The notes beneath the pieces were generated by a model. The model ran no database searches. It saw nothing but the letters and a program-made list of their open reading frames with translations, and was not told where the DNA came from. A stretch of 64,000 bases of DNA, taken from positions 16,303 through 80,302 of the forward strand of contig CAYNML010000003.1 of the NCBI GenBank assembly GCA_964398185.1, read 5' to 3'. Of the stretch, positions 1 to 37,719 are shown piece by piece (the stretch's first letter is position 1; every line of letters starts with the position of its first letter). Both the position numbers and the translations under genes were made by a program. The stretch is from an uncultured Anaerolineae bacterium (GTDB taxonomy: Bacteria; Chloroflexota; Anaerolineae; Fen-1058).

Positions 1-45
1 ATTCCCGCCGTTACGCCTTACGTTTTACGCCTTACGTTTTAGTCT
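1..45. repeat. partial arm of an iterated-word palindrome (TTACGCCTTACGTTTTACGCCTTACG), same word family as the element at 8763-8830
   Basis: It nearly matches the right arm TTACGCATTACGTTTTACGCATTACG at 8800-8827. The window starts inside it. It may instead be coding, because frame 0 is open through it. Confidence 0.4.
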
Positions 46-698: not shown

Positions 699-2659
699 TG
701 CGCTCCTTCCCTCATTCTCTCCGCCTCAAGATGAAACGCTGGCTCCCCATTCTTCTCATACTGTTTCTGGCCGCGCTGCTGCGCCTCGTGGCGCTGCCCG
801 GTGTGCCGCCCGGCCTGCAGCACGACGAGGTCTTTCACGGCCACGATGCGGTGACAGTGCTGCTGGGCTACCGCCCGCTGTACTTCACCTCGAACGCGGG
901 TAACGAGCCGCTCTTCATTTACCTGATGTCGCTGACGGTGGGCGTGTTCGGGCACAATGCGTGGGGCATCCGTTTGGCCGCCGTGATCTGCGGCTTGCTC
1001 ACCGTGCTCTTCACGTATCTGTGGATTCGACGCGCTTATAACGATCGTGCAGCGTTGATCGCCTCGGCGTTGCTGGCCGTGAGTTTCTGGCCGATCTTCC
1101 TGAGCCGCGTGGGACTGCGCGCCGCTTCTGTGCCGCTGATGGCGGCGCTCTCGGCATGGTTGTTGTTTGAAGCATTGCAGCGCCAGCAGCGACGCTGGTT
1201 TGTGCTGGCGGGCATTGCGCTGGGCGTGGCGCTGTACACCTATCCCGCCGCGCGCACGCTGCCCATCGTTTACGTTTTATTCTTTACGTTTTACTCTTTG
1301 CTGATTCGAAAACTGGATCGTTCACTCCTCATCACACTCGTGACCGCGCTCATCGTCGTGACGCCGCTGGCATACACCATCACCACGCTGCCGGAAGCCG
1401 ATGTGCGGTTGCAGCAGCTCGGCGGACCGGTGCAGGAGGCGCTCACCGGCAACGTTGAGCCAGTGCTGCGTTACACCGTGGCAACCCTGGGCATGTTCAA
1501 CGTCGCGGGCGATCCGATCGCGCGTTATAACCTGCCGGGGCGACCAGTTTTTGATCTGATCACAGGGATTTTGTTTCTACTCGGATTGCTGATCGCCCTT
1601 CGCCGTTGGCGCGAACCGCGCAACTTCTTCGCGTTGATCTGGCTCCCGATCGGTTTGCTGCCCTCGATGCTCAGCGATTCCGCGCCGTCGTTCCTGCGCG
1701 CCAGCGCCTCATTGCCGGTGGCGTTTTTGTTCCCGGCGCTGGCGCTTGATTGGCTGTTGGCGCGCATCACGCAAAGGCGCAGTCAGCTGATCGGTTATGC
1801 GCTGATCGGCGGTTTGATCGTTTTCACGGGGGCGCTGACCGTCCGCGATTACTTCTTTGTGTGGCCTAATCGATCGGATGTGCGCGAGGTCTATCGTTCT
1901 GATTTGATGGAAGCCGCGCAATGGATCGAAACACAGGCCAGCGCGCAACCGATCGTGGTGGCGGCCACCAATCCGCGCGATCTCGATCCGTTCCTGTTCG
2001 ATTTTCAGCTGACGGGTGATCGGGAAATCAAGTGGATCGATCGGGCGTTTGCCGTGGTCTTTCCCAATCAGCCAGCGAAATTGATCTCGCCCGCCTATTC
2101 GCCAATCGATCCGCAGCTGCGCGATCGGTTTTTGGGACAGCCGTCGTTCGTGGCAAAGTCCGCAGACGGATCGATCGCGTTTGAGGTGTACGATCTCGCG
2201 CCGTACACGCCATCGCCCGCGAACACTACTGCGACAACCGATCGCGCAGGTGAACTGACCGTGCCGATCGATGTGAATCACACACTGGAGTTTCTAGGCT
2301 ACGACGCGCCGTCGCGCACGCAGCCTGGCGAGGTGCTGCCGTTGACGTTGTACTGGCGCGTGAAGCAGGATGTCGCCGCACAGCAATTGCCATTGTCGCT
2401 GTTCGTGCATCTGCTTAACGAACAAGGCGAATTCGTTGCCGGGCGCGATCTGCTGGCCTTTCCCACGGCCGGCTGGCGCGACGGCGATGTGTGGCTTCAG
2501 CAAAATGATGTGCCGCTGCCCGCCGATTTGAAAGCGGGCGCCTATCGCCTGGAAATTGGCGCGTATTCGCAAGCCGACGGATCGCGCTGGCGCGTGGTCG
2601 ATGCGCAGGGGAACGATGCGGGAGATCGGCTGTTGCTGAATGAGATGGAAGTCAAATGA
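698..2659 (+). CDS. glycosyltransferase family 39 (PMT/ArnT-like, PMT_2) membrane protein with a C-terminal soluble domain
   Basis: The N-terminal TM bundle carries the first-loop DE motif (LQHDEVFHG) and PLYFTSNAGNEPLFIYLMSL, typical of GT39/ArnT-like enzymes. The C-terminal ~120 aa (LEFLGYD...FVHLLN...GAYRLEIGAY) is shared with the genes at 24891 and 34419. The longer ORF from 590 was rejected in favour of the ATG at 698 coupled to the upstream stop. Confidence 0.8.
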   Translation: MRSFPHSLRLKMKRWLPILLILFLAALLRLVALPGVPPGLQHDEVFHGHDAVTVLLGYRPLYFTSNAGNEPLFIYLMSLTVGVFGHNAWGIRLAAVICGLLTVLFTYLWIRRAYNDRAALIASALLAVSFWPIFLSRVGLRAASVPLMAALSAWLLFEALQRQQRRWFVLAGIALGVALYTYPAARTLPIVYVLFFTFYSLLIRKLDRSLLITLVTALIVVTPLAYTITTLPEADVRLQQLGGPVQEALTGNVEPVLRYTVATLGMFNVAGDPIARYNLPGRPVFDLITGILFLLGLLIALRRWREPRNFFALIWLPIGLLPSMLSDSAPSFLRASASLPVAFLFPALALDWLLARITQRRSQLIGYALIGGLIVFTGALTVRDYFFVWPNRSDVREVYRSDLMEAAQWIETQASAQPIVVAATNPRDLDPFLFDFQLTGDREIKWIDRAFAVVFPNQPAKLISPAYSPIDPQLRDRFLGQPSFVAKSADGSIAFEVYDLAPYTPSPANTTATTDRAGELTVPIDVNHTLEFLGYDAPSRTQPGEVLPLTLYWRVKQDVAAQQLPLSLFVHLLNEQGEFVAGRDLLAFPTAGWRDGDVWLQQNDVPLPADLKAGAYRLEIGAYSQADGSRWRVVDAQGNDAGDRLLLNEMEVK

Positions 2660-7087: not shown

Positions 7088-7205
7088 ATCGATATTATAG
7101 ATAGGTCAGGTTGGCTGACGGTTGAAAACACCGCTGTCAACCGCCGATCTTTCCCCGTTCCCCTCTGTGCCAGGCCTCGGCCAAATTTGATGTACAATTC
7201 GCGGC

Positions 7206-8783
7206 ATGAAACTCAGCCAGCTGGTCGCGGCTTTGCCTTCGCTGGACACGCTGCCGCACATCGATCCCGACATCACGCTCATCACCACCGATTCGCGCCA
7301 GGTCATCCCCGGCGCGCTGTTCGTCGCCTATCCCGGCGTCGCGGTCGATGGGCATCGCTTCATCGCGGACGCGCTGCAGCGCGGGGCGGCTGCCATTGTC
7401 GGTGAACGTGAATTTGCCGAGGTCAATCAGCACTCAACCCTCACCCTTCAACAATATCTGCGGGTGCGTGATGGCCGCGAGGCCTTCGCCTGGCTTAACG
7501 CCGCGTGGTACGGCTTCCCGGCGCGCCGGTTGATCATGATTGGCGTGACAGGCACCGACGGCAAAACGACCACGAGCAATCTCATTCATTCCATTTTAAC
7601 GACAGCCGGTATCAAAGCGGGCTTGATCAGCACCGTCAACGCCGTCATCGGCGAGCGCGTATTGGACACCGGCCTGCACACCACGACGCCCGATGCCAAC
7701 GACGTGCAGCGCTACCTCGCAGAGATGGTGGCCGCGGGCATGACTCACTGCGTGCTGGAGACCACTTCGCACGGTCTGGCGCAGCAGCGCGTCACCGGCT
7801 GCGAGTTCGACCTGGCCGTCGTCACCAACATCACCCACGAACACCTCGACGTACACGGCTCGCTGGCAGCATATCGCGCGGCGAAAGGGCTGTTGTTCAC
7901 CTCGCTGGCCGCTTCACACGACAAGGGCCTGCGCAAGGCCGCCATCCTTAACAACGACGACTCGTCCAATGTTTATCTGCGCGATTGGATTGAGCGATCA
8001 GCGCAGGGCGCCTGCCGTCCGGAAATCATTACCTATGCGATCAAGCAGCCCGCGCACTGGAATGCCTTCGACATCGATTATCGCGCTGATGCGATCCACT
8101 TCACGGCGATCGGCGCCGGCCGCTCGATCGAGATCGCCACGCCGCTGGTGGGCGAATACAATGTCTCGAATTGTCTTGCCGCCATCGCCGCTGCGGTTGA
8201 TGGCCTCGGCGTTGATCCACAGGCCGCCCGATCGGGGATCGCAGCCCTCAAAGGCATTCCCGGCCGCATGGAGCGTCTCGACGAGGGCCAGAACTTCACC
8301 GCGCTTGTCGATTTCGCGCACACGCCCAACGCCCTCGATCGCGCCATCGCCGCCGCGCGCACCATGACCGACGGGCAGGTGATCGTCGCCTTTGGGTGCG
8401 CGGGCCTGCGCGATCGCGAGAAGCGCACCTTGATGGGCGAAGTGGCCGGTCGGGCTGCCGATAAAATCATCGTGACCGCCGAAGACCCGCGCACCGAATC
8501 GCTGGACGCGATCATGGCCGTCACCGCGCAGGCCCTGATCGCGCAGGGGCGCGTGGAAGGCGTCGATTTCTGGCGCGTGCCCGACCGGGGTGAAGCGCTG
8601 GCCTTTGCCTGCTCGCTCGCCAAAGCGGGCGATGTGGTCGTGGCTTGCGGCAAAGGCCACGAGCAGTCCATGTGTTTTGGCGACATTGAATATCCGTGGG
8701 ATGATCGGGAAGCGATGCGCGCCGCGCTGCGGGGACAACCCTTAAAGACTCTACCAACGGCCAACGTAAAGCGTAAGGCGTAA
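7206..8783 (+). CDS. murE: UDP-N-acetylmuramoyl-L-alanyl-D-glutamate--2,6-diaminopimelate ligase
   Basis: Mur ligase motifs (GVTGTDGKTTT, DLAVVTNITHEHLD, C-terminal domain). A TACAAT -10-like hexamer ends 8 nt before the ATG, so the mRNA may be leaderless. Confidence 0.9.
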   Translation: MKLSQLVAALPSLDTLPHIDPDITLITTDSRQVIPGALFVAYPGVAVDGHRFIADALQRGAAAIVGEREFAEVNQHSTLTLQQYLRVRDGREAFAWLNAAWYGFPARRLIMIGVTGTDGKTTTSNLIHSILTTAGIKAGLISTVNAVIGERVLDTGLHTTTPDANDVQRYLAEMVAAGMTHCVLETTSHGLAQQRVTGCEFDLAVVTNITHEHLDVHGSLAAYRAAKGLLFTSLAASHDKGLRKAAILNNDDSSNVYLRDWIERSAQGACRPEIITYAIKQPAHWNAFDIDYRADAIHFTAIGAGRSIEIATPLVGEYNVSNCLAAIAAAVDGLGVDPQAARSGIAALKGIPGRMERLDEGQNFTALVDFAHTPNALDRAIAAARTMTDGQVIVAFGCAGLRDREKRTLMGEVAGRAADKIIVTAEDPRTESLDAIMAVTAQALIAQGRVEGVDFWRVPDRGEALAFACSLAKAGDVVVACGKGHEQSMCFGDIEYPWDDREAMRAALRGQPLKTLPTANVKRKA

Positions 8784-8830
8784 AACGTAACAGGCCCATT
8801 ACGCATTACGTTTTACGCATTACGCATCAT
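8763..8830. repeat. iterated-word palindrome (AACGTAAAGCGTAAGGCGTAAAACGTAA / TTACGCATTACGTTTTACGCATTACGC) spanning the murE stop and the murE-GT2 spacer
   Basis: The left arm encodes the last codons of murE (KRKA*) and places TAA in all three frames. The right arm is the inverted complement. GC is low relative to the genome. Confidence 0.7.
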
Positions 8831-8842
8831 TTTTCACTCATC

Positions 8843-9796
8843 ATGCTGGATCTCGCCATCATCATCGTCAACTACAACGTCTGCGATCTGCTCCGCGAGT
8901 GCCTCACGTCCGTCTATGCCAGCACCGGCCTTGCCTTCGCGGTATGCGTCGTCGATAACGCTTCGCCCGATGACAGCGCCGCCATGGTGGCGCGCGAATT
9001 TCCGCAGGCGCACCTCATCCGCAACACGGAGAATATGGGCTACGCGGCAGCGAACAACCTGGGACTGCGCTATTTTGGATTTACCGATCGGGGATCAGAG
9101 ATCTGGTCTCAGGGATCGGACGCTGGCGATCAACCCCACATCCAACATCCGACCTCTAACATCCCCCGCTATGCGCTGCTCTTGAATCCTGATACAGTGG
9201 TGCCGCCCGACGCTTTGGCGCGAATGATCCAGCTCATGGACGATCATCCGGACTTTGGCGTGAGCGGCCCCAAGCTGGTGCGCCGCGACGGCTCGCTCGA
9301 TCTGGCCTGCCGGCGCGGCTTCCCCTCCGTGGAAGTCTCCTTTTGGCGTTTGACGAAATTGAGTAAAATATTCCCCCGCAGCCGGCGCTTCGGACGTTAC
9401 AACATGACCTACCTCGATCCCGATCAACCCGCGGAGATCGATTCCGTGGTGGGCGCATTCATGCTCGTACGGCGCGAGGCAATTGCGCAAGCGGGCCTGC
9501 TGGATGAGATCTTCTGGATGTATGGTGAAGACCTCGATTGGGCGTACCGCATCAAGCAGCGCGGCTGGAAAGTGTACTATTACCCGGCGGTCGTCGTCAC
9601 GCACGTCAAGCGCGCGTCCAGCAGCCAGGACAATGCGGGCGCGGCCAAAGCGCAGTACGAATTCGATCGCGCCATGTGGCTGTTCTATCGCAAGCACTAT
9701 CAGGCCAGCACGCCGCGTCTGGTCGATTGGCTGGTGAAGTTCGGACTGGGCTTGAAGGGCGGCGCGCCGCTGAAAGCTGAGATGAAGCAGAAGTAA
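8843..9796 (+). CDS. glycosyltransferase family 2
   Basis: GT-A fold motifs (IIVNYNVCDLL, VVDNASPDD, NMGYAAANNLG). Confidence 0.8.
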   Translation: MLDLAIIIVNYNVCDLLRECLTSVYASTGLAFAVCVVDNASPDDSAAMVAREFPQAHLIRNTENMGYAAANNLGLRYFGFTDRGSEIWSQGSDAGDQPHIQHPTSNIPRYALLLNPDTVVPPDALARMIQLMDDHPDFGVSGPKLVRRDGSLDLACRRGFPSVEVSFWRLTKLSKIFPRSRRFGRYNMTYLDPDQPAEIDSVVGAFMLVRREAIAQAGLLDEIFWMYGEDLDWAYRIKQRGWKVYYYPAVVVTHVKRASSSQDNAGAAKAQYEFDRAMWLFYRKHYQASTPRLVDWLVKFGLGLKGGAPLKAEMKQK

Positions 9797-11208
9797 TGAA
9801 GAATAGTCGTGTCCGCACGTTATCCACCCTCGCGTTGATCAGCGCCGACACGGTGCTGATCACTGTGGCGTTTCTCATCGCGTACGGCATCCGCTGGGAA
9901 TCGACGCAGCTCGACCCCGGCATCAAGCTGGCCCCGTTCGGCGACTATCTGGGTTTGTTGATCGTCCAGATCGTTGCGATTGTGACAGTGATGTTCTGGG
10001 CGCGGTTGTACCATCAGGCGCGCGCCGTCTCGCGCGTCGACGAGTTTTACGGCGTGTTCGGCGCGGTTTCGATTGGCATGATGATGTCCGTCGCCATCTC
10101 GACGCTGCTCTTCAAGAACCTGGAGTTCGACTTCCCCCGCACGCTCATCATCTATTCGTGGCTGCTGACCATCATCCTGGTCATGGTCGGGCGGCTGGTG
10201 TATCACGCCGTGCAGTGGCGCTTGCAGGCGCGCGGCATGGGCCGCGAAAAAGTGCTCATCGTCGGCACCGGCGACACCGGCAAACTGGTGCTGGAGAAGA
10301 TCAAAGGCTCGCCGCACCTGGGCTATGAGGTGATCGGTTTCGTGCACAAGAACGGCGAGACCGAACCGGACAACGTGCTGGGTGTCCCGGTGCTGGGCAA
10401 TGCCGAAGATCTGCCGCGCCTGATCGACGAACGGCAGATCGACGAAGTGATCATCGCGCTGCCGGAAGCGTCCGACGAAGAAATGCTGGGGCTGATCTCC
10501 AAATGCTCGAAGGCGTCACTCAGCATCAAGGTCTTCCCGGACGTGTTCCAGATCATCGCCACGCAGGTCACCATCGACGATCTGGGCGGGCTGCCGCTGT
10601 TGAGCGTGCGCGATGTGCGCCAACACGGCTGGCGGTTGACGGTGAAGCGCCTCATGGATGTGACGCTCAGCGCGATCGGACTGGTGCTGATCTCGCCGCT
10701 GCTGTTCATCACGGCCATCTTGATCAAACTCGAATCGCCCGGCCCGGCGTTCTACGTGCAGGAGCGCATGGGCCTGGATGCCAAGCCGTTCAAGATGATC
10801 AAACTGCGCTCCATGCGCCAGGACGCCGAAGCCAACGGCCCCGGCTGGACGGTGGAAAACGATCCGCGCCGCACCAAGCTGGGCACGTTTATCCGCAAGA
10901 CCAACGTAGACGAACTGCCGCAGTTGATCAATATTTTGATCGGCGATATGAGCCTGGTCGGGCCGCGTCCCGAGCGCCCGGTCTACGTCGAACAATTCCG
11001 CCGCACCATTCCGCGCTACATGGAGCGTCACAAAGAAAAAGCCGGCCTCACCGGCTGGGCGCAGGTCAACGGCCTGCGCGGCGATACCTCCATCAGCGAA
11101 CGGACCAAGTACGATCTGTGGTATATCGAAAATTGGTCGCTGCTGCTGGACATCAAGATTCTCATCCGCACGGCGCTGCGGATGTTTACCGACAAAAACG
11201 CGTACTAA
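9796..11208 (+). CDS. polyprenyl-phosphate sugar phosphotransferase (WbaP/WcaJ-type bacterial sugar transferase with N-terminal TM/Rossmann region)
   Basis: The C-terminal catalytic domain is conserved (KMIKLRSM, DELPQLINILIGDMSLVGPRPERP, GLTGWAQVNG). The start overlaps the GT2 stop (ATGA). Confidence 0.85.
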   Translation: MKNSRVRTLSTLALISADTVLITVAFLIAYGIRWESTQLDPGIKLAPFGDYLGLLIVQIVAIVTVMFWARLYHQARAVSRVDEFYGVFGAVSIGMMMSVAISTLLFKNLEFDFPRTLIIYSWLLTIILVMVGRLVYHAVQWRLQARGMGREKVLIVGTGDTGKLVLEKIKGSPHLGYEVIGFVHKNGETEPDNVLGVPVLGNAEDLPRLIDERQIDEVIIALPEASDEEMLGLISKCSKASLSIKVFPDVFQIIATQVTIDDLGGLPLLSVRDVRQHGWRLTVKRLMDVTLSAIGLVLISPLLFITAILIKLESPGPAFYVQERMGLDAKPFKMIKLRSMRQDAEANGPGWTVENDPRRTKLGTFIRKTNVDELPQLINILIGDMSLVGPRPERPVYVEQFRRTIPRYMERHKEKAGLTGWAQVNGLRGDTSISERTKYDLWYIENWSLLLDIKILIRTALRMFTDKNAY

Positions 11209-11242: not shown

Positions 11243-11272
11243 TTGACATGATTATAAAGCGTGGGTTATAAT
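11243..11272 (+). promoter_or_regulatory. sigma-A-type promoter of the hrcA operon (TTGACA, 17-nt spacer, TATAAT)
   Basis: TTGACA at 11243-11248 and TATAAT at 11267-11272 in an AT-rich tract, immediately upstream of CIRCE. Confidence 0.7.
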
Positions 11273-11286: not shown

Positions 11287-11313
11287 TTAGCACTCTTGCC
11301 ACGAGAGTGCTAA
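11287..11313 (+). promoter_or_regulatory. CIRCE operator (TTAGCACTC-N9-GAGTGCTAA), the HrcA binding site
   Basis: perfect match to the CIRCE consensus, 18 nt upstream of the hrcA ATG. Confidence 0.9.
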
Positions 11314-11331
11314 TTACTTGACAGGAAAATT

Positions 11332-15025: not shown

Positions 15026-15032
15026 CGAAATG

Positions 15033-15114
15033 TTCAATGATCAATTTTCAATGATCAATGCGTGGTTCGCCCCATCGGTCATTGGTCGTTGATCATTGGT
15101 CATTGATCATTGAG
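15033..15114. repeat. long imperfect palindrome of TGATCAAT/ATTGATCA words in the dnaK-dnaJ spacer
   Basis: CAATGATCAATTTTCAATGATCAATG faces CATTGGTCGTTGATCATTGGTCATTGATCATTG; low GC; starts 8 nt after the dnaK stop. Confidence 0.65.
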
Positions 15115-16277: not shown

Positions 16278-16293
16278 GGATCAGCTGATCAGG

Positions 16294-16325
16294 AACGCCG
16301 ATCGGACAGGATCGGCGTTTTTGTT
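16294..16325 (+). terminator. intrinsic terminator after dnaJ (AACGCCGATC-GGACAG-GATCGGCGTT + TTTTT)
   Basis: 10-bp stem, 6-nt loop, followed by a T-run. Confidence 0.7.
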
Positions 16326-16335
16326 GCGAGGCACA

Positions 16336-17283
16336 ATGTCCGTAAATCACCAATCAGAAATCCAAAATCCAAAGTCGAATCAGTGGCTTGAGGTCTGCGT
16401 CATGACCGAAGCCGAGACCGCCGAGGCTGTCTCGGAAGTGATGAGCCGCGCTGCGCCCAACGGCGTGGCGATCGAGCAGATTGCGCGCGATATTCAACTC
16501 GGCGCGGATGAAGGCGCGGCGGCGCAGCTGGAGCCGATCGTGGCGGTGCGCGCCTACCTGCCGCTGGAAGACGATGTTGAGACGAAGCGCCGCCAGATTG
16601 AAGAAGGACTGTGGCACTTAAGCCGCATTGTACATATGCCTGAGCCGACGTTCCGCGTGGTCGCCGAAAGCGATTGGGCCAATGCGTGGAAAGAGCACTA
16701 TCACGTGGTGCACCTGGGCGAGCGGTTTGTGATCAAGCCGACGTGGCGCGAGTACGCCGCACAGCCCGGCGAGATCGTGATGGAACTCGATCCGGGGATG
16801 GCGTTTGGCACGGGACTGCATCCGACGACGCAGATGTGCCTGGCGGCGCTTGAGAAGTACGCGCAGCCCGACATGCACACGCTCGATCTTGGCGCCGGCT
16901 CGGGCATCCTGGCGATTGGCGCGGCGCTGCTGGGCGTCAAGTCGATCGTGGGCATCGACAATGATCCGCTGGCGGTGAAGGTGGCCGCCGAGAACGCCGC
17001 ACTGAATCGCGTGGAGCAGCAGATCGCCGTCGAGTTGGGATCGCTGGAAGAGGCGGCCAGGCAAACTTACGACTTGATCATCGTCAACATTCTGGCGCGC
17101 GTGATCATCGGGATGTGCGAAGCCGGTCTGGGGCGCGTGGTCCGATCGGGCGGGCTGGCGATCTTCGCGGGGTTGATCGATACGCAGGAATACGGCGTGC
17201 GCGAGGCGTTGCAGACGCAGGGGCTGACGGTGATCGATCGGTTGCAGGAAAAAGACTGGGTGTGCTTGATCGCGAGGAAATGA
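16336..17283 (+). CDS. prmA: ribosomal protein L11 methyltransferase PrmA
   Basis: N-terminal W-E-V motif region and SAM-binding motif (LDLGAGSGILAIGA). The start was chosen after the dnaJ terminator; a TTG at 16321 would overlap the T-run. Confidence 0.8.
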   Translation: MSVNHQSEIQNPKSNQWLEVCVMTEAETAEAVSEVMSRAAPNGVAIEQIARDIQLGADEGAAAQLEPIVAVRAYLPLEDDVETKRRQIEEGLWHLSRIVHMPEPTFRVVAESDWANAWKEHYHVVHLGERFVIKPTWREYAAQPGEIVMELDPGMAFGTGLHPTTQMCLAALEKYAQPDMHTLDLGAGSGILAIGAALLGVKSIVGIDNDPLAVKVAAENAALNRVEQQIAVELGSLEEAARQTYDLIIVNILARVIIGMCEAGLGRVVRSGGLAIFAGLIDTQEYGVREALQTQGLTVIDRLQEKDWVCLIARK

Positions 17284-17343
17284 TCCACGAATCCCCACGA
17301 ATAATCACTTCGTGAAGATCGTGTGCATTCGTGGATCGCGGTT

Positions 17344-17797: not shown

Positions 17798-19906
17798 CTA
17801 TTTTCGACGGCGACCGAGCACCAGCACGAGCACGAAGAAGACTACGGCGGCCCCGATCGTGATCGGCAGCACCGGCAGCACCTGGCCGGTGGAGGTTGTG
17901 CCGAAGGGCGGCGGCGTGGGCGTGGGCGTGGGTGACGGCGTGCTCGTGGGTGTGCCCGTGGGCGTGGGCGTGGCCGTGGCCGTGGCCGTGGGCAGCGGAG
18001 TCGGCGTGTGCGTCGGCGTGCCGGTGGGCGCCGGCGTGGGCGTGTGGGTAGGCAGCGCGGGCGTGGCGACAGGCGTCGGGACGACACGGGTATCTGCCAC
18101 GGCCGGGCGAACCGGATCGCCCGGCACGAAAACGTCCAGCAGGCCGTTGGCGATGACGAGACCGTTGTTGGTGCCCAGCTCCAGCACGGCGTTCCGCAGA
18201 TCGAGCGCAAAAACTACGTTCTCGCCCAGCGTCCGTGCGCCATCCCGTGTGATCTCCAGGGCGGTGTCTTGCGTCAGGCCAAAGGCGACCGCGGCCGGAT
18301 CGTTGTAGGCCAGCGAGAACAGCCGCCCCCAGCGATTGTCATTCAGCACCTGCGGCTCGACGGTGATGTCGAGCAGGCCCAGCCCTGCGACGAGGTTGGT
18401 CGTGCCCTGCAAGAACGATTTCTGCACGGCAAACTCGGCTTCGTCCGGGTCGGCGGGCGTGGGGCTGTGCGCCGAGTACGATCGGCCGACGACGGCCGCG
18501 CCGCCGTTGTCGGCCAGCAGCGGCAAGCCGTTGGCCCACGCGGTCTTGACGGCTTCCAATCGGCTGACTTCCACCTTCGATTGATCTTTGGCGATCAAGA
18601 GCAGGCCCGTTACATCGGCCGGGATGGTCAGCGCTTCATCCTGATCGAGGACGACGGCGATTTGCGAAGGTGCGCCCAGCGCGGCCGCATATTGGTCGGC
18701 CATGACCTGCGCCGAACTTTGTGAAGGGAAGCCAGCGGCCACGATCAAGATTTTGGCTTGGTCGCCGCCGGCCAGCTTGACAAAGCGCTTGAAGATGGCG
18801 TTGTCGTCCAGCGACTCGCTGAGATCGCCGGCCAGGATCAGCGGCCCGGCGCGGCGGGGCAGGGTCAACGCCCGGAAGTCGCGCGCGATTCTGGTGCGGG
18901 GCGGCTGGGCCTTGTTTCCGATCGACATCACGCGCTTATCCAGATCATACGTGAACTGGCCGGGCGCCAACAACTGCACCAGCACGTTGCGCAGGCGCAG
19001 TAGATTGTTTGGCGACGAGTACGTCACGCCGTCGGCCGCGTGGTACGTTTCTGCATCGAGAATGGTGGTGGTGTACAGACCAAAGACGTCCTGCAGTTGG
19101 GTCTCGTCGTAGACATTGACGCCGGTGTAGGCGTCGACGCCGATGCCGACGTGCGGCACATCGGCGCGCGTGACGGCATTAAGCAGGCGGCCCAACCGGT
19201 TGAGCTGGAAAAAGTGTTGATCGAGAATGGCATCCTTGATCGAAAAGAGCAGGCCGTGTTGTTCGGGTGTGTTCCACACTTCGCTGGCCTTGAATTGCAG
19301 GGAGTTGGCGGCCTCAAAGCCCGGCCTGTAGCCGGCCAGCATGGCCGCCGATTGGATGCCGCCGCCGCCGCTGGTGCCCGCCACGATAACGCCGTTTTCG
19401 TACGAGGTGGTCAGCGCCTGCTCCAGCGGCGTGCCGCTCAAGACTTCCATGGCCACCGTTTGATCGCCGCCCAGCACAAAGATGGCGGACAGATCGTTGG
19501 CGAAGTATTTCAGCGACTTGGGATCAGCCGCGTCGCTGCGGGTGAAGATGGGCGCCAGGGTGGCGGTGCAGGTGTAGTCTGCCGGGGCGGCGCGCTTGCA
19601 GGCTTCTTCAATCTGGAAACGGCGCTCTTCGGCGGCGCTCAAATAGGCGGCGCGCTCAGCGCCGCTGATGGTTTGGGCGTTGGCGGCGGACGCCACCGGC
19701 AGCACCAGAATGTTGACCTGTTTGTCTTTGGCGTTGGCCACGGCTTCTTTGGAGAAGCCGGCATAGATATCGGAGTAACCACCGCCGATGGGGATGAGGT
19801 GCTCGATCGGTTGGGGTTGGGCCGCCGTGGGCAGCCCGCTGACGAACACGCCAAGGATGATCACTACAATCGCCAGGAGTCGCAACAATCGATAGGATCG
19901 GGACAT
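17798..19906 (-). CDS. secreted, membrane-anchored protein with two peptidase S51 (cyanophycinase/dipeptidase E-like) domains, a PT-rich linker and a C-terminal TM + RRRK tail
   Basis: Signal-peptide-like N-terminus after the ATG at 19906 (GAGG SD). Two class-I glutamine-amidotransferase-like S51 repeats (VLPVASA...GTSGGGG; ILIVAAGFPSQ...). C-terminal PTPTPT linker and hydrophobic anchor. Confidence 0.6.
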   Translation of the reverse strand: MSRSYRLLRLLAIVVIILGVFVSGLPTAAQPQPIEHLIPIGGGYSDIYAGFSKEAVANAKDKQVNILVLPVASAANAQTISGAERAAYLSAAEERRFQIEEACKRAAPADYTCTATLAPIFTRSDAADPKSLKYFANDLSAIFVLGGDQTVAMEVLSGTPLEQALTTSYENGVIVAGTSGGGGIQSAAMLAGYRPGFEAANSLQFKASEVWNTPEQHGLLFSIKDAILDQHFFQLNRLGRLLNAVTRADVPHVGIGVDAYTGVNVYDETQLQDVFGLYTTTILDAETYHAADGVTYSSPNNLLRLRNVLVQLLAPGQFTYDLDKRVMSIGNKAQPPRTRIARDFRALTLPRRAGPLILAGDLSESLDDNAIFKRFVKLAGGDQAKILIVAAGFPSQSSAQVMADQYAAALGAPSQIAVVLDQDEALTIPADVTGLLLIAKDQSKVEVSRLEAVKTAWANGLPLLADNGGAAVVGRSYSAHSPTPADPDEAEFAVQKSFLQGTTNLVAGLGLLDITVEPQVLNDNRWGRLFSLAYNDPAAVAFGLTQDTALEITRDGARTLGENVVFALDLRNAVLELGTNNGLVIANGLLDVFVPGDPVRPAVADTRVVPTPVATPALPTHTPTPAPTGTPTHTPTPLPTATATATPTPTGTPTSTPSPTPTPTPPPFGTTSTGQVLPVLPITIGAAVVFFVLVLVLGRRRK
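17885..18075. repeat. low-complexity GGCGTGGGCGTG-type DNA repeats encoding the Pro/Thr linker
   Basis: direct inspection. Confidence 0.6.
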
Positions 19907-20064: not shown

Positions 20065-20817
20065 ATGACTGTTTTGCAAGCCGAGCAAGTAACCAAACAT
20101 TACCGCATGGGCGATGTCATCGTCAGCGCGCTGGATCGCGTGGATTTCAGCGTAACGCGCGGCGAGTTCGTCGCCATCATGGGGCCGTCGGGATCGGGCA
20201 AGTCCACACTGCTGCACCTGCTGGGCGGATTGGATGGGGCGTCGGGCGGCGCGATCACGTTGGCCGAGAAACAACTCTCGACGCTAGACGACAACGCCGT
20301 GACGCTGGTGCGCCGCCGCAACGTGGGCTTCATCTTTCAGTTCTACAACCTGGTGCCCACACTGACGGCGGAGGAAAACATTGCCCTGCCCTTGTTGATC
20401 GATGGGCGCGATGTGAAGAAGTCGCAGGCGAAGATCGACGAACTGCTGGCGCTGGTGGGCTTGAGCGAGCGGCGGCGCCACAAACCCGATCAGCTGAGCG
20501 GCGGCCAACAACAGCGTGTGGCGATTGCGCGGGCGCTGGTGACTGATCCGGACATTGTGCTGGCCGACGAGCCGACGGGCAACCTTGATTCGAAGAGCGG
20601 CAAGGCGATTCTGGAATTGCTGCGCCATTCGTGCGACGAGCTGCATCACACCATCGTGATGGTGACGCACGATGCGTATGCCGCCTCGTATGCCGATCGT
20701 GTGGTGTTCCTCAAGGATGGCCGCCTCGTGCGGCAGCTGCAGCGATCGGACGCGAAAGAGGGCGCGGTGATGCAGGCGATTATGGATGTGATGGGGCATT
20801 TGGAAAGTAACGAGTAA
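20065..20817 (+). CDS. ABC transporter ATP-binding protein (MacB/LolD/DevA-like)
   Basis: Walker [10 protein letters not shown], signature LSGGQQQRV, Walker [12 protein letters not shown]; GAGGAG SD 6 nt upstream. Confidence 0.9.
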
Positions 20818-20870
20818 TGAGTAACGAGTAAGCCGCGTTTTACTCATTACTCGTTACTTGTTACGCGGAA
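20806..20870. repeat. iterated-word palindrome (GTAACGAGTAATGAGTAACGAGTAA / TTACTCATTACTCGTTACTTGTTACG) spanning the ATPase stop and the ATPase-permease spacer
   Basis: the left arm encodes the terminal ESNE* and gives stops in all frames; the right arm is the inverted complement. Confidence 0.7.
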
Positions 20871-23483: not shown

Positions 23484-23485
23484 GT

Positions 23486-23560
23486 GGTTGTTGGTTGTTG
23501 GTTGTCGGTCGTTGGTTGTTGGTTGTTGGTAGTTGGTTATGCACAGCGACCAACAATCGC
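23486..23560. repeat. GGTTGTT heptamer microsatellite (about 8 units) followed by an inverted ACCAACAA segment
   Basis: direct inspection; starts 3 nt after the permease TAA, ends 10 nt before the HlyD start. Confidence 0.7.
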
Positions 23561-23569
23561 AGTGGAGGG

Positions 23570-24793
23570 ATGATGAAAGGCAAACAGATCTTTGGACTTA
23601 TTGTAGGGGTGATCGCTTTGAGCGCGATCGGGTTCTTGGGCTATCAGCGCTTTCTGGCGCCCGAACCGACGGCGACACCAACGCCCGTCGCGGCGGCGAA
23701 AGTCGAGGCTGATGTCGTTTCGGCGCAGGGCTTCGTGGCGCCGCAGCGCAGTAGCGAGCTGGCATTCCGATCGGGCGGGCGCGTGACGGAGGTGTTGATT
23801 GCCGAGGGCGATCAGGTCACGCAGGGCCAGGCGCTCATCCGCTTGCAGGCTGATCAATGGCAGGCGGCGGTGGCGCAGGCGCAGGCTGTGCTTGATCTGG
23901 CCAAGGCGAATCTCGATCAGGTGAAACAAGGCGCGCGAGCGGAAGACATTTCCGCGGCGGAAGCGCAGGTGCAAGCCGCCGAAGCGCAGGCGAAAGCGGC
24001 CGCGGCGGAACGCAATCGCTTGACGGGCGGCGCGACGGATGCGGCTATCGCCGCGGCCCAGGCGCGTCTGTCGGCGGCGCTGGTGGAGCAGAAGGTGGCG
24101 CAAGATGCGTATGACAAAGTGACGCAATGTGTGACGGTCAACGGCAACGAAGTGTGCCCGGGCCTCGGCACGCCCGAAGAGCAGGCGCGCGCGAGTCTGG
24201 CGGCGGCGAATGAAGCCGTGAACGCCGCGCGCAAAGCCTTGACCGAAGCCACGCGCGGATCGAGCCAGCAGGTGCAGGCCGCGCAGGCGAATGTGGCGGC
24301 GGCGCAGGCGCAGATCGATATGGCGCGGGCGCAGCTCGAGCGGGTGAAGGCGGGCGCAACCTCGGCGCAGATCGCAGCGGCAGACGCGGGTGTGGCTCAG
24401 GCCGAGGCGGGCTTGCAAGCCGCGCAGGCCGCGTTGAACGAAGCCACGTTGATCGCGCCGTTCGCCGGGACGATCGCGCAGATCGACACGGAAGCGGGGC
24501 AGGTCGTGGGGCCGGGCGTGCCGATCGTGAGCATGGCCGATCTCAACGCGTGGGTGATCGAGACGGACGATCTGAGCGAGGTCGATGTGATCAACGTGCA
24601 GCCCGATCAAGCAGTGACGATCACCCTGGATGCGCTGCCCGGCGTAAAGTTGAACGGTAAGGTGCTGGCCATCATGCCGAAGGCGCAGACCAAGCGCGGC
24701 GATGTGACGTACACCGTCAAGATTGCGATCGAGAATCCTGATCCGCGTTTGAAGTGGGGGATGACGGGGCAGGTGGAAATCCAGGTGCGGTAG
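23570..24793 (+). CDS. HlyD-family periplasmic adaptor / membrane fusion protein
   Basis: N-terminal TM, long Ala/Gln coiled-coil, C-terminal beta-barrel (IAPFAGTIAQI...). GGAGGG SD; ATG at 23570 preferred over the ORF from 23495. Confidence 0.8.
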   Translation: MMKGKQIFGLIVGVIALSAIGFLGYQRFLAPEPTATPTPVAAAKVEADVVSAQGFVAPQRSSELAFRSGGRVTEVLIAEGDQVTQGQALIRLQADQWQAAVAQAQAVLDLAKANLDQVKQGARAEDISAAEAQVQAAEAQAKAAAAERNRLTGGATDAAIAAAQARLSAALVEQKVAQDAYDKVTQCVTVNGNEVCPGLGTPEEQARASLAAANEAVNAARKALTEATRGSSQQVQAAQANVAAAQAQIDMARAQLERVKAGATSAQIAAADAGVAQAEAGLQAAQAALNEATLIAPFAGTIAQIDTEAGQVVGPGVPIVSMADLNAWVIETDDLSEVDVINVQPDQAVTITLDALPGVKLNGKVLAIMPKAQTKRGDVTYTVKIAIENPDPRLKWGMTGQVEIQVR

Positions 24794-24890: not shown

Positions 24891-27800
24891 TTATGGCCTG
24901 ATGGCTTCCGTGAGAACCACGCGCTGCTGCGCGGCATCGATCGCGTGTGTGCCGCTGACGGGCAGGCGGCCGGCGGGCTCATACAACCCGATCGCGATGC
25001 GGTATTCACCCGGCGGCACATTCGCCAGCGGAATGAGCAACGTCTCGGTGATCACTTCGTTCGCGATCCAGCGCGAGGTGGGATAGGCGTTGTGGCGCGG
25101 CATGGCGTCCCACTGCGCGACGATGGTCTCGGTGGCCGGATCAAAGATGTGCGCGAAGACTTTGTAGTTGCGGGTGATATCGCGCCGCGCCTGCCACGCC
25201 AGATCGATCTGCAGCGTATCGCCCTCGCGTTTCAGATCGTAACCCAGCAATTGAATCTGATCCCCGAAGACCGCATCGAGCGGCTGAGACATGGTCGGTG
25301 CGTTGAAGTTGCGGGCGGGCGGCTCGATGGCGCGCCACGCGTGCGGATCAAGATGAATGCCGTCGATGGTCGTGCGGCCCACTTCTGCTTGCGAGGCGAC
25401 ACGATAGAGGATCACGTCGAGCGCATAGACTTGATCGCGCGGGAGATCGGCGGGCAGATCGAGTGTGTATGCGTCGTTAAGCGTGCCCGGCTGCCACGCG
25501 CTGGTCGGCTGAAAGCCATAGCCGGGCTGCGTATCGAGTGAAGTCCAGACTTTGCCAGAAGAATCGTGCAGCCGCAGCGAGATGCCGTAGTTCGCATCTG
25601 TCACACCAGAGATCGCCCACTGCAGCAGCACGTCGAGACGATCCAGATCATGCAGTTGCGTTTGCACTGCCGCGAGTCCGATGTTGGGCGTGAGCGATCC
25701 GAATTGGGGTGAGGTGGGCTCGTCGGAATGCTTGATCCAGATCGGCGCGAGGAACTGAGTATCATCGCCTACTTGCACCGACACGTAGTACATGCCGGTG
25801 GGTAAGGCGTAGGGCACATGTAATGTCACTCTGTTCTGCCCGTTCTGTACAGGCGTAACCGTCTGTGTGATCGGACTCGGCCCGCCGAACAGATGCGTGG
25901 ACGGTGCAACGAGCGAGACGGTGGCGCTTACCTCCGCCGACGAAGCAATGCTCCACTCCATGTCTACTTCTACGCTGCCCGTATCTGGCGCAAAGCGTGC
26001 CTCAGACTTCATCAGACTGATGTCGTCACGAAAAGCATAACCGCCCGGATTGTGATGCAGCCACGGCTTGCTGACGAAGTCCATCGTTAGGTCGCGCGCC
26101 TCAGCGGACACCGCATAAACGTGCTGTGCCACGGCGATGAAGAGACCGTATCCAAAAACGATCAACGCGGCCCACCACACATTGCGAGACGGAATCAAAT
26201 GGCGCAGATCAACATCCAGACCGTTCGTGTCACGATAAAAGCGAATCAACAAGAAGACGGTAAGTACCGCCAGTGTGATGAGCGAGACAGCTTCGCCAAC
26301 GGTGCGGAGGAGCGTATTACTCAACCACACGTCGAGACGGTCTCCGCCGTTCCGGGTTACATCCACTTGTACATAGCCCAGATCGGGCGCGGCGCGAGCG
26401 GGTATGTCCGCGCCATTTTGATAAGCCCGCCAGATCGGCCAGTAAATGATCGGCAAATTAAGGGTGGCCGTTTCCGATTGAGTGCGCACGCTCCACGTTT
26501 GCCAAGTGGCGCCCCATTGAGACTGCATGGAATCTACAGAGCCAGCAGAAACGATCGGGCGGAGAAGAATCGCCGTTGGATCGATCAACAGCGGCCCGGT
26601 GTGCGGTCGCGGGATCAGCGTGCGCGGCAGATACTCGGCGCGGATCGTTGTGCCGATGTTGCCGGTGAACGCTTCGTACAGCTGCAACCGTTGGGGCGTG
26701 ATCTCATCCGATCGGATGGGCAAGTAATCGGGGCGCAGGGTGAACAGCATTGACGCGACGAGGATCAATCCAACCGGCACAGCCACACGCGCCGGACGCG
26801 TGACAACCAGCGCTAGATACCCAATCGTCAACGAGGTGAACAACGCCTGAATCGACAGGAAGCGCCACGGGAATTGTGTGTACGATAGCAGCGGCAGCGT
26901 GTCCCACAACGGTTTGGACAACGGCGTGATCATGAACGTGGACAACGCCAGCCCGATCAGCACGAAGAGGCGGAACGAACTTGAATCCGTTTTAACGGAT
27001 TTGTCTTGAGCAGCGACCGAATTCATTCGGTCGCGTTTCCACGTCACGATCAAGGCAATGAGGCCCGCCACTGTCCCGATCGCTTGCACCAGCCCCATCG
27101 CAAACGGCGAATTCGATCCGGGCGCGGTCGTAATCGCGTAGTCGAAGCCGATCGAGTTTTGGATCAGGTTCGCCGCCCGGAAGTGTTCGGCATAGTTGAA
27201 GTAGCCCGTCGTCTGCACAGCGCCGACTTGCGTCAGGCTCGCTTCGCCCAAAGCAGGCAGCCAGAAGAACGCGGACAGCGCGAAGGCAAGCAGAAGTCCA
27301 GCGCCAATGCCAAGGATGGTGCGCCCCACTGGGAAGCTTGGCACTGTTACGTGTTGCGTATTGCGTATTAACCACGCACCACGCACTACGCCATACGTGA
27401 TGACGAACGGCGAGAAGATCAGCGCCGAGATGTTGTGCGTGAGAATCAAGCCGCCGTAAGACAGCGCCAGCAGCGGCCAATTGCGGGCGGAATCAAAGAT
27501 GCGATCGATCGACCACAAGATGAGCGGATAGAAGATGAACGCGTAGAACTCGCTCAGCGAATCGCCGCGCACGTAGACGTTGACCAGGTGAAATGGCGCA
27601 TAGAGGTAAGCGACCGCCGCCAGCCACGCCGCCCAACGAGTAGTGAAATGCCGCCGTGCCCAGCCGTACAGCGCGAAGCCCGCGCACACGAAGCCCAGCG
27701 TCTGCACGATCTTGATCGAGGTGAGCAGATCGAAGCCGAGGAAGTTGAAAATCGCCGCAAAGTAATACGGCAGCGCAGCATAGAAGTTAAAAAAGGGATA

Positions 27801-28058
27801 GCCCAGGCCGTAAGCCGCGTCAGGCATCCACCGCATGGGGAAAACGCCCTCGCGCAGGTTCGCCATCAATTGATGCAAGCGGAAAAACAAGAAGGGACTA
27901 TCGCCGCCGCCGCGCGTATTGACGAGTCCCGGCCCGGTCCACAACGGCAGCGCGGCCAGCAGCGCCGCAAGCAAAAGCGTCAGACCGATCCAGGGGATCG
28001 ATCTGACGCTTGCGCGAAAACCCGATTGAGGTTGTACGGCAGAAGCGGCGTTGGTCAC
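24891..28058 (-). CDS. large polytopic membrane protein, PTPS-related/YfhO-like putative GT-C glycosyltransferase with a C-terminal soluble domain
   Basis: N-terminal motif GGGDSPFLFFRLHQLMANLREGVFPMRWMPDAAYGLGYPFFNFYAALPYY typical of 6-pyruvoyl-tetrahydropterin-synthase-related membrane proteins. More than 12 TM segments. C-terminal domain (QLLGYD...FAHIFD...GEYRIAIGLYE) shared with both GT39 proteins. GTG start. Confidence 0.65.
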   Translation of the reverse strand: MTNAASAVQPQSGFRASVRSIPWIGLTLLLAALLAALPLWTGPGLVNTRGGGDSPFLFFRLHQLMANLREGVFPMRWMPDAAYGLGYPFFNFYAALPYYFAAIFNFLGFDLLTSIKIVQTLGFVCAGFALYGWARRHFTTRWAAWLAAVAYLYAPFHLVNVYVRGDSLSEFYAFIFYPLILWSIDRIFDSARNWPLLALSYGGLILTHNISALIFSPFVITYGVVRGAWLIRNTQHVTVPSFPVGRTILGIGAGLLLAFALSAFFWLPALGEASLTQVGAVQTTGYFNYAEHFRAANLIQNSIGFDYAITTAPGSNSPFAMGLVQAIGTVAGLIALIVTWKRDRMNSVAAQDKSVKTDSSSFRLFVLIGLALSTFMITPLSKPLWDTLPLLSYTQFPWRFLSIQALFTSLTIGYLALVVTRPARVAVPVGLILVASMLFTLRPDYLPIRSDEITPQRLQLYEAFTGNIGTTIRAEYLPRTLIPRPHTGPLLIDPTAILLRPIVSAGSVDSMQSQWGATWQTWSVRTQSETATLNLPIIYWPIWRAYQNGADIPARAAPDLGYVQVDVTRNGGDRLDVWLSNTLLRTVGEAVSLITLAVLTVFLLIRFYRDTNGLDVDLRHLIPSRNVWWAALIVFGYGLFIAVAQHVYAVSAEARDLTMDFVSKPWLHHNPGGYAFRDDISLMKSEARFAPDTGSVEVDMEWSIASSAEVSATVSLVAPSTHLFGGPSPITQTVTPVQNGQNRVTLHVPYALPTGMYYVSVQVGDDTQFLAPIWIKHSDEPTSPQFGSLTPNIGLAAVQTQLHDLDRLDVLLQWAISGVTDANYGISLRLHDSSGKVWTSLDTQPGYGFQPTSAWQPGTLNDAYTLDLPADLPRDQVYALDVILYRVASQAEVGRTTIDGIHLDPHAWRAIEPPARNFNAPTMSQPLDAVFGDQIQLLGYDLKREGDTLQIDLAWQARRDITRNYKVFAHIFDPATETIVAQWDAMPRHNAYPTSRWIANEVITETLLIPLANVPPGEYRIAIGLYEPAGRLPVSGTHAIDAAQQRVVLTEAIRP

Positions 28059-36582: not shown

Positions 36583-37719
36583 ATGCTTTCCAAAGCGCTG
36601 GTGATCGGCGCTTATCACAGCAAGCTCAAGCACATCGCCGCGCAGCCCGACGTGCGGCTCACGGCCCTCGTACCGCCCAGCTGGCGCGACGAGCGCGGCG
36701 AGTTGAAACTGGAACGCACCACGGGCGATGGCTACGACTTGATCGTCACGCCGCTGCGCTTCAATGGCAACTTTCACCTGCACTATTATCCGCAGCTCGA
36801 TCGTTTGTTGCAGCAGCTCCAGCCCGACCTGGTGCACATCGACGAAGAACCCTACAATCTGGCGACGTTTCTCGCCCTGCGATCCGCGCGTCGTCTCGGC
36901 GCACGCGCAATCTTCTTCAGCTGGCAGAATTTGCGGCGATCGTACCCGCCGCCGTTTCGCTGGTTCGAGCACTACACCCTGCAACACGCTGCCGCCGGCA
37001 TCGTGGGCAATGCAGATGCGGAACAGGTGTGGCGCGTCAAAGGCTATCGCGGCCCGTTGACGGTGATTCCGCAAGTGGGCGTTGAGCCGGAGGTGTTGAA
37101 GCCTCTGGATCGAAACCGGGATTCTACGACTGAACCTTCTCGCCATTCAAATGGAAGAATCCCGGTTGCTACGTTTGTCGTCGGCTACGCGGGGCGCTTT
37201 GTTGAAGAGAAAGGAATTGATGTGCTGCTGCACGCGCTGCACGATCTCGATGGCAACTGGCAGGCTGAGCTGGTAGGCAGCGGTCCGGATCACACCCGAT
37301 TGGCTGAGCTGGCCCAACGGTTGCAGATCGCCGATCGGGTGCGGTTTCTGCCGTGGAGGCCCTCCGCGCAAATGGTCGACTATTATCGATCGCTGAACGT
37401 GCTGGTCCTGCCCTCGCGCAGTCGATCGAATTGGAAAGAGCAGTTCGGGCGCGTGCTGGTGGATGCCATGGCCTGCGGCGTCCCCGTCATCGGCTCCACG
37501 TGCGGCGAGATTCCCCACGTCATCGGCGACGCGGGGTTGATCTTCCCCGAAGGTGATACGACGGCCCTGCGCGATCAGCTGCGCAGATTGCAGAACGATG
37601 CCGCACTCTGCCGCGATCTCGCGCAGCGCGGACGCCAGCGCGTGCTGGAGCGCTTCACGCAGGAGCAGATTGCGCGGCAGACGGTTGCGGTATATCAAAA
37701 CGTAATGCGTACTGTGTAA
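36583..37719 (+). CDS. glycosyltransferase family 4 (GT-B, group 1)
   Basis: C-terminal GT4 motifs (VLPSRSRSNWKEQFGRVLVDAMACGVPVIGS); GGTGAGG SD; start at 36583 rather than 36445. Confidence 0.8.
   Translation: MLSKALVIGAYHSKLKHIAAQPDVRLTALVPPSWRDERGELKLERTTGDGYDLIVTPLRFNGNFHLHYYPQLDRLLQQLQPDLVHIDEEPYNLATFLALRSARRLGARAIFFSWQNLRRSYPPPFRWFEHYTLQHAAAGIVGNADAEQVWRVKGYRGPLTVIPQVGVEPEVLKPLDRNRDSTTEPSRHSNGRIPVATFVVGYAGRFVEEKGIDVLLHALHDLDGNWQAELVGSGPDHTRLAELAQRLQIADRVRFLPWRPSAQMVDYYRSLNVLVLPSRSRSNWKEQFGRVLVDAMACGVPVIGSTCGEIPHVIGDAGLIFPEGDTTALRDQLRRLQNDAALCRDLAQRGRQRVLERFTQEQIARQTVAVYQNVMRTV

Follow-up and report, generated by a model that had tools for sequence, protein, structure and literature searches.

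Bacterial heptanucleotide repeats have been known for decades and still have no accepted function. The cyanobacterial class goes by the name STRR, reportedly used by Mazel in 1990, and one of its words, TTGGTCA, is exactly the unit found at positions 15073-15113 of the DNA considered here, a 64-kb stretch (the window) from an uncultured Anaerolineae bacterium of the phylum Chloroflexota (GenBank assembly GCA_964398185.1, contig CAYNML010000003.1, positions 16,303 to 80,302). The window carries short tandem arrays of heptamers both between and within genes, and at five gene ends, those of murE and dnaK among them, an array faces its own reverse complement across a short loop.

According to Mrazek 2007, as cited in PMC4679880 and PMC4692102, no other long simple-sequence repeats are as abundant in many prokaryotes as heptanucleotides, with polymerase slippage as their proposed source; PMC4692102 also cites heptanucleotide repeats in tandem from the cyanobacterium Calothrix PCC 7601, and heptamer repeats of Nostoc have been studied (bioRxiv 10.1101/2022.06.06.494920). 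In Xanthomonas the word GGGAATC forms 70-75 convergent array pairs per genome that are capable of folding into stem-loops (Rehm et al. 2015, PMC4692102). Some 90% of these arrays are intergenic, nearer to the upstream open reading frame (ORF) and mostly between co-directional ORFs, the majority are transcribed, and Xanthomonas species preserve the position and type of an array (single or inverted pair) while its length varies (PMC4692102). TAACTGA repeats of Beggiatoaceae, Cyanobacteria and Bacteroidetes occur in 169 direct sets versus one indirect set, just upstream of start codons (MacGregor 2015, PMC4679880), and in one orientation place stops in three frames, which limits the overlap with the upstream ORF to about 18 nt at most (PMC4679880). 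Chloroflexus aurantiacus holds 22 satellites derived from (GATAGRA)n, with 14-nt units (Subirana and Messeguer 2019, PMC6749651). Finally, Proteobacteria possess the repetitive extragenic palindromic (REP) sequences with their BIME and REPIN forms (PMC3116915), and REP sequences have been linked to stable stem-loops (PMC2777011). The architecture described below had not been recognised as a described element in a preliminary description of this DNA; heptamer simple-sequence repeats and inverted pairs of them are, however, published (PMC4692102, PMC6749651, PMC4679880), so that the architecture is already described, though not for Anaerolineae nor in the comparative detail given here, and the inverted-pair form is now extended to this uncultured lineage.

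All eight stretches singled out in the preliminary description are present where it placed them, and each is a repeat array by Tandem Repeats Finder and by our own period scan. Its range of 6-9 nt for the iterated word gives way to a period of exactly 7 nt, head to tail, at every one of these loci. Period-7 arrays with a score of at least 10 number 12 in the window, compared with a mean of 0.31 and a maximum of 2 in 100 dinucleotide shuffles, and since our period scan gives just 0-1 arrays each for periods of 4, 5, 8, 10 and 11 nt, and a few repeats, of coding type, for periods of 6, 9 and 12 nt, the signal is specific to heptamers. The units have 29-57% GC against 61% for the window. Words are shared between loci, where a different one had been proposed for each: [AG]CGTAAN is found again at 8765, 37702, 52356, 11-41, 1269 and 27345, six sites among which the elements 3' of the first GT4 gene (GT4a) and of the lipoprotein gene represent degenerate forms of it, and GTAACGA occurs at both 20806 and 58593. 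New to the list are the arrays upstream of prmA and 3' of the second GT4 gene (GT4b), the prmA-infA hairpin, and the coding arrays in the GT2 and YfhO/PTPS-like genes and at 1269-1299 (Table 1). Given that the elements are the same in independent assemblies from three samples, an assembly artefact was dropped as an explanation. A CRISPR array was dropped as well, unique spacers being absent, and within the window an Rfam scan at the gathering threshold returned no match and a tRNA/tmRNA scan no gene. The arrays very probably belong to the slippage-type heptanucleotide simple-sequence repeats: replication slippage would generate them wherever DNA tolerates steps of 7 nt, that is, in spacers, or in protein loops if the total length stays in frame.

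A pool of 81 Anaerolineae loci from relatives (1.31 Mb; designated by L-numbers below), in which genes were called with a crude GC3-based caller and orientations are consequently approximate, extends this picture. It holds 47 arrays of period 7 and 23 of period 8, with 2-6 each for periods of 5, 10 and 11 nt. Intergenic DNA makes up 12% of the sequence and contains 51 of the 67 classifiable period-7/8 arrays (binomial p ~1e-33); the remainder lie in frame and encode protein loops. An inverted partner scoring at least 12 within 100 nt accompanies 22 of 70 arrays versus 0.14% with shuffled flanks. The 47 arrays use more than 30 words, of which TCCAATC, GATCAGG, CGTAAnn and CAATGAn are found in several genomes. 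Such sharing, together with the strict 7-nt register, might point to multimeric binding sites for a protein whose subunits each read about 7 nt, either of single-stranded RNA or DNA (a cold-shock-domain or S1-like protein) or of double-stranded DNA. One cold-shock protein per heptamer has been discussed for TAACTGA repeats (PMC4679880), and a partner has been postulated in Nostoc (bioRxiv 10.1101/2022.06.06.494920). So many words are nevertheless too many for a single specific binder, and arrays paired in hairpins would not stay single-stranded, which leaves a binding function for the arrays improbable.

Only five loci, the 3' ends of murE, dnaK, the ABC ATPase gene, GT4a and the lipoprotein gene, combine an array with its reverse complement across a short loop. 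At none of them did any of 200 dinucleotide shuffles fold as stably as the native element (-27 to -39 kcal/mol, z -4 to -7). All five hairpins are hosted by co-directional spacers, which their AU-rich stems of 20-35 bp fill; in every case the 5' arm contains the upstream stop codon or comes within 4 nt of it, and the 3' arm ends 9-22 nt before the next start codon. At least seven gene-end palindromes had been proposed; these five stand as true hairpins, whereas the loci 3' of the permease and A2M genes hold direct arrays only. Folding of each element separates them in the same way: the five are stable, the A2M array stays unfolded and the hairpin seen there is a separate canonical terminator, and the permease locus has a z of -3.2, with only a long-range outer stem in its centroid. 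The stretch at 1-45, read as a further partial gene-end copy, lies in frame inside the PMT_2 gene. The reported overlap of left arms with the C-termini KRKA, ESNE and NVMRTV and their stops is correct, and the C-terminus of MurE (...VKRKA) is longer than that of its orthologues by five or six residues that are read from the array.

Stable stem-loops right after stop codons could in principle be unusual AU-rich, U-tract-poor intrinsic terminators at operon ends. A T5 run in 8828-8835, 4 nt past the murE stem, would suit that role, as would the TGnTATAAT promoter that GT4b, downstream of the GT4a hairpin, seems to own. Yet the stems have 30-45% GC and four of the five lack a T-tract, whereas genuine terminators elsewhere in the window (16293-16325, 58617-58655 and others) are GC-rich and carry one; the genes downstream follow closely and are mostly without a recognisable promoter; and because the stop codon sits in the 5' arm, a transcription-coupled ribosome would block folding. 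Moreover, a consensus terminator scan of the window found 12 candidates versus 16.1 expected, hence no enrichment, and did not pick up the hairpins. Arrays in the relatives are likewise depleted in convergent spacers (2 observed versus 7.8 expected) as well as in divergent ones, and enriched in co-directional spacers (46 versus 36.6). Termination is thus an improbable role, and the preliminary view that these are not simple terminators is borne out by composition, spacing and the co-occurrence of classical terminators.

Orthologous spacers behave as the preliminary description had predicted, in that an iterated-word hairpin is kept while word and copy number change. Between dnaK and dnaJ, where further relatives were fetched through DnaJ homologues, a CAATGA / TCATTG heptamer hairpin is present in seven of nine distinct relatives (the window, L003, L206, L207-type, L210, L214 and L215), whose DnaJ proteins are 79-95% identical where measured. 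The arms have 3-6 units each and are about balanced, although unit variants and copy numbers vary, and L006 has a plain hairpin, free of repeats, that shares the outer stem. Conservation extends to the final 3' unit, CATTGAG(G/A), the probable Shine-Dalgarno sequence of dnaJ. Likewise, an iterated-word hairpin follows murE in the window (CGTAAnn), in L003, L005, L009, L210 and L215 (CACGAAnnn) and in L007 (GCTGAAG-type), with half a hairpin in L006. In both spacers, then, units turn over and the hairpin nonetheless persists across considerable divergence. On the 3' side of dnaJ it is the canonical terminator, ACGCCGATCGG...CCGATCGGCGTTTTT, whose sequence is conserved in relatives, and the purine-rich heptamer array between the dnaJ stop and that terminator is hypervariable, built of GGATCAG, TTGGATG or AGACAAG depending on the relative.

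Two kinds of strand bias were seen. Among window spacers of at least 25 nt, 9 of 10 between plus-strand genes hold a heptamer array or hairpin versus 0 of 12 on the minus strand (Fisher p = 2e-5). Cumulative GC skew climbs through the entire window, and the plus strand may be the leading one; the corresponding count in relatives, 33 versus 4, is confounded by sampling around murE. Further, in 14 of the 18 hairpins for which the transcribed strand could be called, the sense-strand RNA folds more stably than the antisense (two-sided sign test p = 0.03), as expected from G-U pairing under selection at the RNA level, and this asymmetry is no more than suggestive of such selection.

Because the hairpin is retained despite unit turnover, and in view of operon placement, stop-codon geometry and the bias in sense-strand stability, the inverted pairs may serve as intercistronic mRNA structures, the functional reading with the best support, to which we would give about an even chance. 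As such they could protect 3' ends, be processed by double-strand-specific cleavage, or mask the following ribosome-binding region in a translation-sensitive way. An array beside its own reverse complement, the situation in about a third of cases, would yield an AU-rich stem-loop in the polycistronic mRNA. With the upstream stop codon in or next to the 5' arm, a terminating ribosome, given the established size of its footprint, would have to melt the stem. Once formed, the hairpin could shield the 3' end of the upstream cistron or offer a site to double-strand-specific processing, and the dnaK-dnaJ and ABC-permease hairpins might also mask the ribosome-binding region of the next gene, the net outcome being that relative expression is set within operons. 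This geometry is testable: a stop codon within the 5' arm and, at the 3' edge, the ribosome-binding region of the gene that follows. An RNA thermometer at dnaK-dnaJ was considered and dropped, since operons unrelated to heat shock share the architecture.

Several observations weigh against this account or add little to it. The hairpin is absent without obvious consequence from the dnaK 3' spacer of L213 and the murE 3' spacer of L004. Arrays are not confined to gene 3' ends, for in L003 some ten units of CTTCATC / CCTCATC (9898-9970) occupy a promoter-proximal divergent spacer, directly in front of the murE -10 box, and this location, together with the arrays in coding loops, indicates a mutational process that needs no function. 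The 14:4 asymmetry is modest, depends on orientations from the crude caller, and could be explained by G+T skew of the coding strand. For eight orthologous dnaK-dnaJ spacers RNAalifold predicts just 9 pairs (covariation term +0.74), an uninformative outcome given that the repeat units make the MAFFT register arbitrary. Five further assemblies from this population, picked by an identical MurE, DnaK or permease protein, are 99.8-100% identical and have no indels in the arrays and neither indels nor substitutions in the hairpins, in a sample too small and clonal to bear on copy-number polymorphism. Finally, intrastrand template switching at quasipalindromes, a described mechanism, could by itself keep the arms balanced (PMC7202029).

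These points lead to the most serious alternative, a purely neutral one in which slippage makes arrays wherever the frame permits, template switching at quasipalindromes copies the arms, and expression is unaffected. It would account readily for arrays that lie in frame within three or four window genes and, in relatives, within the GT2 linker, for the promoter-proximal array in a divergent spacer, for the high diversity of words and for the hypervariable arrays beside the dnaJ terminator. A metagenome scan for four copies of CGTAANN is also to its credit, having returned at least 120 loci in unrelated contigs of 29-70% GC; among the matches listed, an inverted partner, in either arm order, accompanies about 24% of the arrays, and adjacency to ORF 3' ends is about equal to that to 5' ends, for which reason an exclusive association with 3' ends was rejected. 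Neutrality sits less well with a hairpin that persists in the same spacer over 79-95% DnaJ identity while its units change, with a conserved word family 3' of dnaK, with the bias towards sense-strand stability, and with the depletion of arrays in convergent and divergent spacers, though these are the least constrained DNA. On balance a neutral origin of the hairpins seems rather unlikely, although it is a stronger contender than the other alternatives. For the direct-only arrays (permease, A2M, dnaJ-prmA and GT4b), neutral filler is the most likely status.

The proposal that the words place stops in all frames before the hairpin dissolves into arithmetic. Since 7 equals 1 modulo 3, any unit containing a stop reaches all three frames within 21 nt. 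Words had been said to hold TAA or TGA, and only about half carry a stop triplet; TGGTTGT, GATCAGG, AAATCCA and ACCACGC have none. An order in which the stop-bearing arm comes first was rejected as well: among the matches listed, it does so in 15 of 32 CGTAANN hairpins and comes second in 17. Stop content is thus a filter on which arrays are able to overlap a gene end, and not a design.

A second word family, CCACGAA, has a period of 9-10 nt and builds the prmA-infA hairpin as well as the murE 3' hairpins of relatives. Its ends, GATCCACGAA...TTCGTGGATC, also given as GATCCACGA...TCGTGGATC, are conserved at several loci and genomes, its hairpins lie 3' of prmA and murE in several genomes, and their stability rises to -49 kcal/mol (L207). 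In L031 the element is part of a repeat of about 200 nt, present in four copies, that looks like a REP or like a MITE (miniature inverted-repeat transposable element). This family, the occurrence of intergenic palindromes at many loci, and a CGTAA core at six or more window sites invite the idea of mobile palindromes, REP/REPIN- or MITE-like and spread by a transposase, and a REP-like family had been among the preliminary suggestions. When the heptamer hairpins are compared, however, arms, loops and flanks vary from locus to locus and just the 5-nt CGTAA core is shared, with no common consensus, loop or termini; copy number changes in 7-nt steps; and orthologous elements diverge in place by gain and loss of units, not by insertion or excision. 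Inspection by eye found no flanking duplications and no empty orthologous sites of the kind that mark MITEs, but diverged hairpins instead. Mobility is accordingly very improbable for the heptamer elements.

Should the hairpins act in the mRNA, a bolder extension would have them form a lineage-wide operon punctuation in Anaerolineae, with intercistronic hairpins built and retuned by slippage of 7-nt (and 9-10-nt) units. We regard this as a speculative and unlikely generalisation. As both arms consist of repeats, a stem could pair in several registers and its length could shift in quantised steps. If such punctuation were real, the ratios between cistrons, DnaK:DnaJ or ATPase:permease for example, would come under evolvable control, a stop codon within the 5' arm would make the structure sensitive to translation, and heptanucleotide repeats would finally be given a function, a question open since their cyanobacterial description.

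Arrays also lie within genes. The array at 11-41 encodes ...RRYALRFTPYVLVF..., and its translation has homologues among the ORFs of L003 and L006; the PMT_2 gene itself has an in-frame stop (533-535) and an overlapping ORF in another frame (96-698), and could reflect a frameshift, a pseudogene or two genes. In the GT2 gene (8843-9796) a hypervariable linker (~9085-9170) made of in-frame heptamer arrays follows ...NNLGLRYFGF, and the linkers of L004 (3272-3369) and L005 (5230-5290) consist of different heptamers, word and length varying with the relative. The inverted pair in the YfhO/PTPS-like gene encodes YGVVRGAWLIRNTQHVTV. Large ORFs also hold 6-, 18- and 54-nt periodic repeats of the GGCGTG / GCGTCG type (45860-46242 and 47050-47202 in the minus-strand ORF 45830-47917; 17913-18044), which are probably repetitive protein domains unrelated to the heptamers. 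For annotation this means that arrays lengthen or shorten C-termini, as in MurE, yield spurious upstream starts (TTG at 23495) and add hypervariable in-frame linkers to glycosyltransferases.

Gene names in the window agree with Pfam. Identical proteins are found in metagenome contigs only, and in the genome collection the nearest relatives of MurE belong to metagenome-assembled genomes of Chloroflexota / Anaerolineae at 77-84% identity, one of them labelled Thermoflexales, the rest lying at 51-62%. On the 3' side of the GT4a hairpin, TGgTATAAT (37762-37770) ends 6 nt before an ATG at 37777 and is likely a leaderless promoter of the second GT4 gene. An extended -10 box, TGtACAAT (7180-7208), similarly ends 6 nt before the murE ATG and is kept in relatives (L003 9985-10003; L004, L005). 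The two boxes together suggest leaderless mRNAs for murE and the second GT4 gene. Upstream of hrcA-grpE-dnaK-dnaJ stands a perfect TTGACA-18-TATAAT promoter (11243-11272), followed by a CIRCE operator, TTAGCACTC-N9-GAGTGCTAA (11290-11316).

Table 1. Repeat arrays, hairpins and terminators of the window, with related sites in other Anaerolineae loci.
Feature	Position	Strand	Unit and make-up	Folding	Landmarks
murE 3' hairpin	8765-8827	+	5' arm CGTAAAG x3.7 (8765-8790), 3' arm CATTACG x4.4 (8797-8827); 20 nt arms, 95% complementary	-27.0 kcal/mol, z -6.1	murE stop codon 8781-8783 within 5' arm; GT2 start 8843
dnaK-dnaJ spacer hairpin	15029-15113	+	5' arm AATGATC/AATGTTC x4.6, 3' arm CATTGGT/CATTGAT x5.7	-39.4 kcal/mol, z -5.9	final unit CATTGAG 9 nt ahead of dnaJ ATG (15123)
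ABC ATPase-FtsX/MacB permease hairpin	20806-20864	+	AGTAACG x3.7 / TTACTCG x3.6; 20 nt arms, 100% complementary	-32.0 kcal/mol, z -6.8	ABC stop codon 20815-20817 within 5' arm; permease ATG 20874
GT4a (first GT4) 3' hairpin	37702-37758	+	degenerate heptamer [AG]CGTAnn	-27.3 kcal/mol, z -5.9	GT4a stop codon 37717-37719 within 5' arm
Gmad2 lipoprotein 3' hairpin	52356-52425	+	degenerate heptamer nCGTnnn	-30.0 kcal/mol, z -4.0	lipoprotein stop codon 52358-52360 within 5' arm; Shine-Dalgarno AAGGAG, then A2M ATG (52446) downstream
prmA-infA hairpin	17284-17343	+	iterated CCACGAA / TTCGTGG, period ~10	-26.3 kcal/mol, z -4.3	convergent genes
permease-HlyD array	23485-23537	+	direct TGGTTGT x7.7, no stop triplets; short complement ACCAACAA at 23550	z -3.2, centroid with long-range outer stem only	permease stop 23483; HlyD start ~23564-23573
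A2M 3' arrays	58570-58614	+	GATCAGG x3 (58570-58590), GTAACGA/GTAATCA x2	unstructured, z -0.3	directly after A2M stop
terminator 3' of A2M	58617-58655		canonical, bidirectional, GC-rich perfect stem	-25 kcal/mol, z -6.2	convergent genes
dnaJ terminator	16293-16325		GC stem and T-tract	-22.6 kcal/mol, z -6.6	
array upstream of prmA	16345-16373	+	direct AATCnnn x4		just past canonical dnaJ terminator
GT4b (second GT4) 3' array	38944-38968	+	direct ATTGnTC x3.7		GT4b stop codon 38934
PMT_2 glycosyltransferase coding array	11-41	+	TTACGYY x4		in frame, not gene end
in-frame coding array	1269-1299				
GT2 linker array	9138-9164	+	ACATCCn heptamer		in frame
YfhO/PTPS-like membrane-protein coding arrays	27345-27391	-	inverted GCGTrGT x3 / AATACGC x3		in frame; gene 24891-28058
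dnaJ 3' array and terminator sites	window 16278-16330; L003 19110-19175; L206 2926-2995; also L210, L213, L214, L215				
CCACGAA family sites	window 17284-17343, 60553-60572; L003 11596-11690; L005 4908-4976; L207 2847-2919; L210 3581-3695				
CCACGAA family sites in L031	9556-9609, 11801-11855, 12020-12074, 14184-14238				

The main value of these elements lies in the comparative material they provide on what heptamer repeats do, and it is against the known systems that they are best placed. Like the cyanobacterial heptamers and the long simple-sequence repeats in general, they are tandem 7-nt units, of several different words in one genome, that are richer in AT than the genome as a whole, lie overwhelmingly between genes and vary in length between relatives. 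Unlike the cyanobacterial heptamers, they occur in a host of the Chloroflexota/Anaerolineae with 61% GC, their arrays are short (3-8 units), and a third of the arrays form inverted pairs versus few in Nostoc (PMC4692102). With the TAACTGA repeats they share the intergenic location, occasional in-frame copies in ORFs and the stop arithmetic visible in the KRKA, ESNE and NVMRTV ends; there, however, a single word is used and is almost always direct, whereas here the words are many and inverted pairs are found. Chloroflexus offers heptamer-derived arrays scattered in a genome of the same phylum, but belongs to the class Chloroflexia, not Anaerolineae, and has a single word for which neither hairpin arrangement nor gene-end placement is described (PMC6749651). 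Xanthomonas likewise has convergent arrays of one unit that are capable of forming stem-loops, an arrangement for which the five window loci qualify; its single word is G-rich with G-quadruplex potential, in contrast to the many words, absence of G-tracts and AU-rich stems seen here. REP sequences, finally, are also intergenic imperfect palindromes, often within operons, that form stable stem-loops in mRNA. They differ in having a genome-wide consensus and a cognate RAYT transposase, whereas the hairpins here lack a common consensus and change in place as units slip, yet by analogy it is most plausibly in the manner of REP stem-loops that the heptamer hairpins would work.

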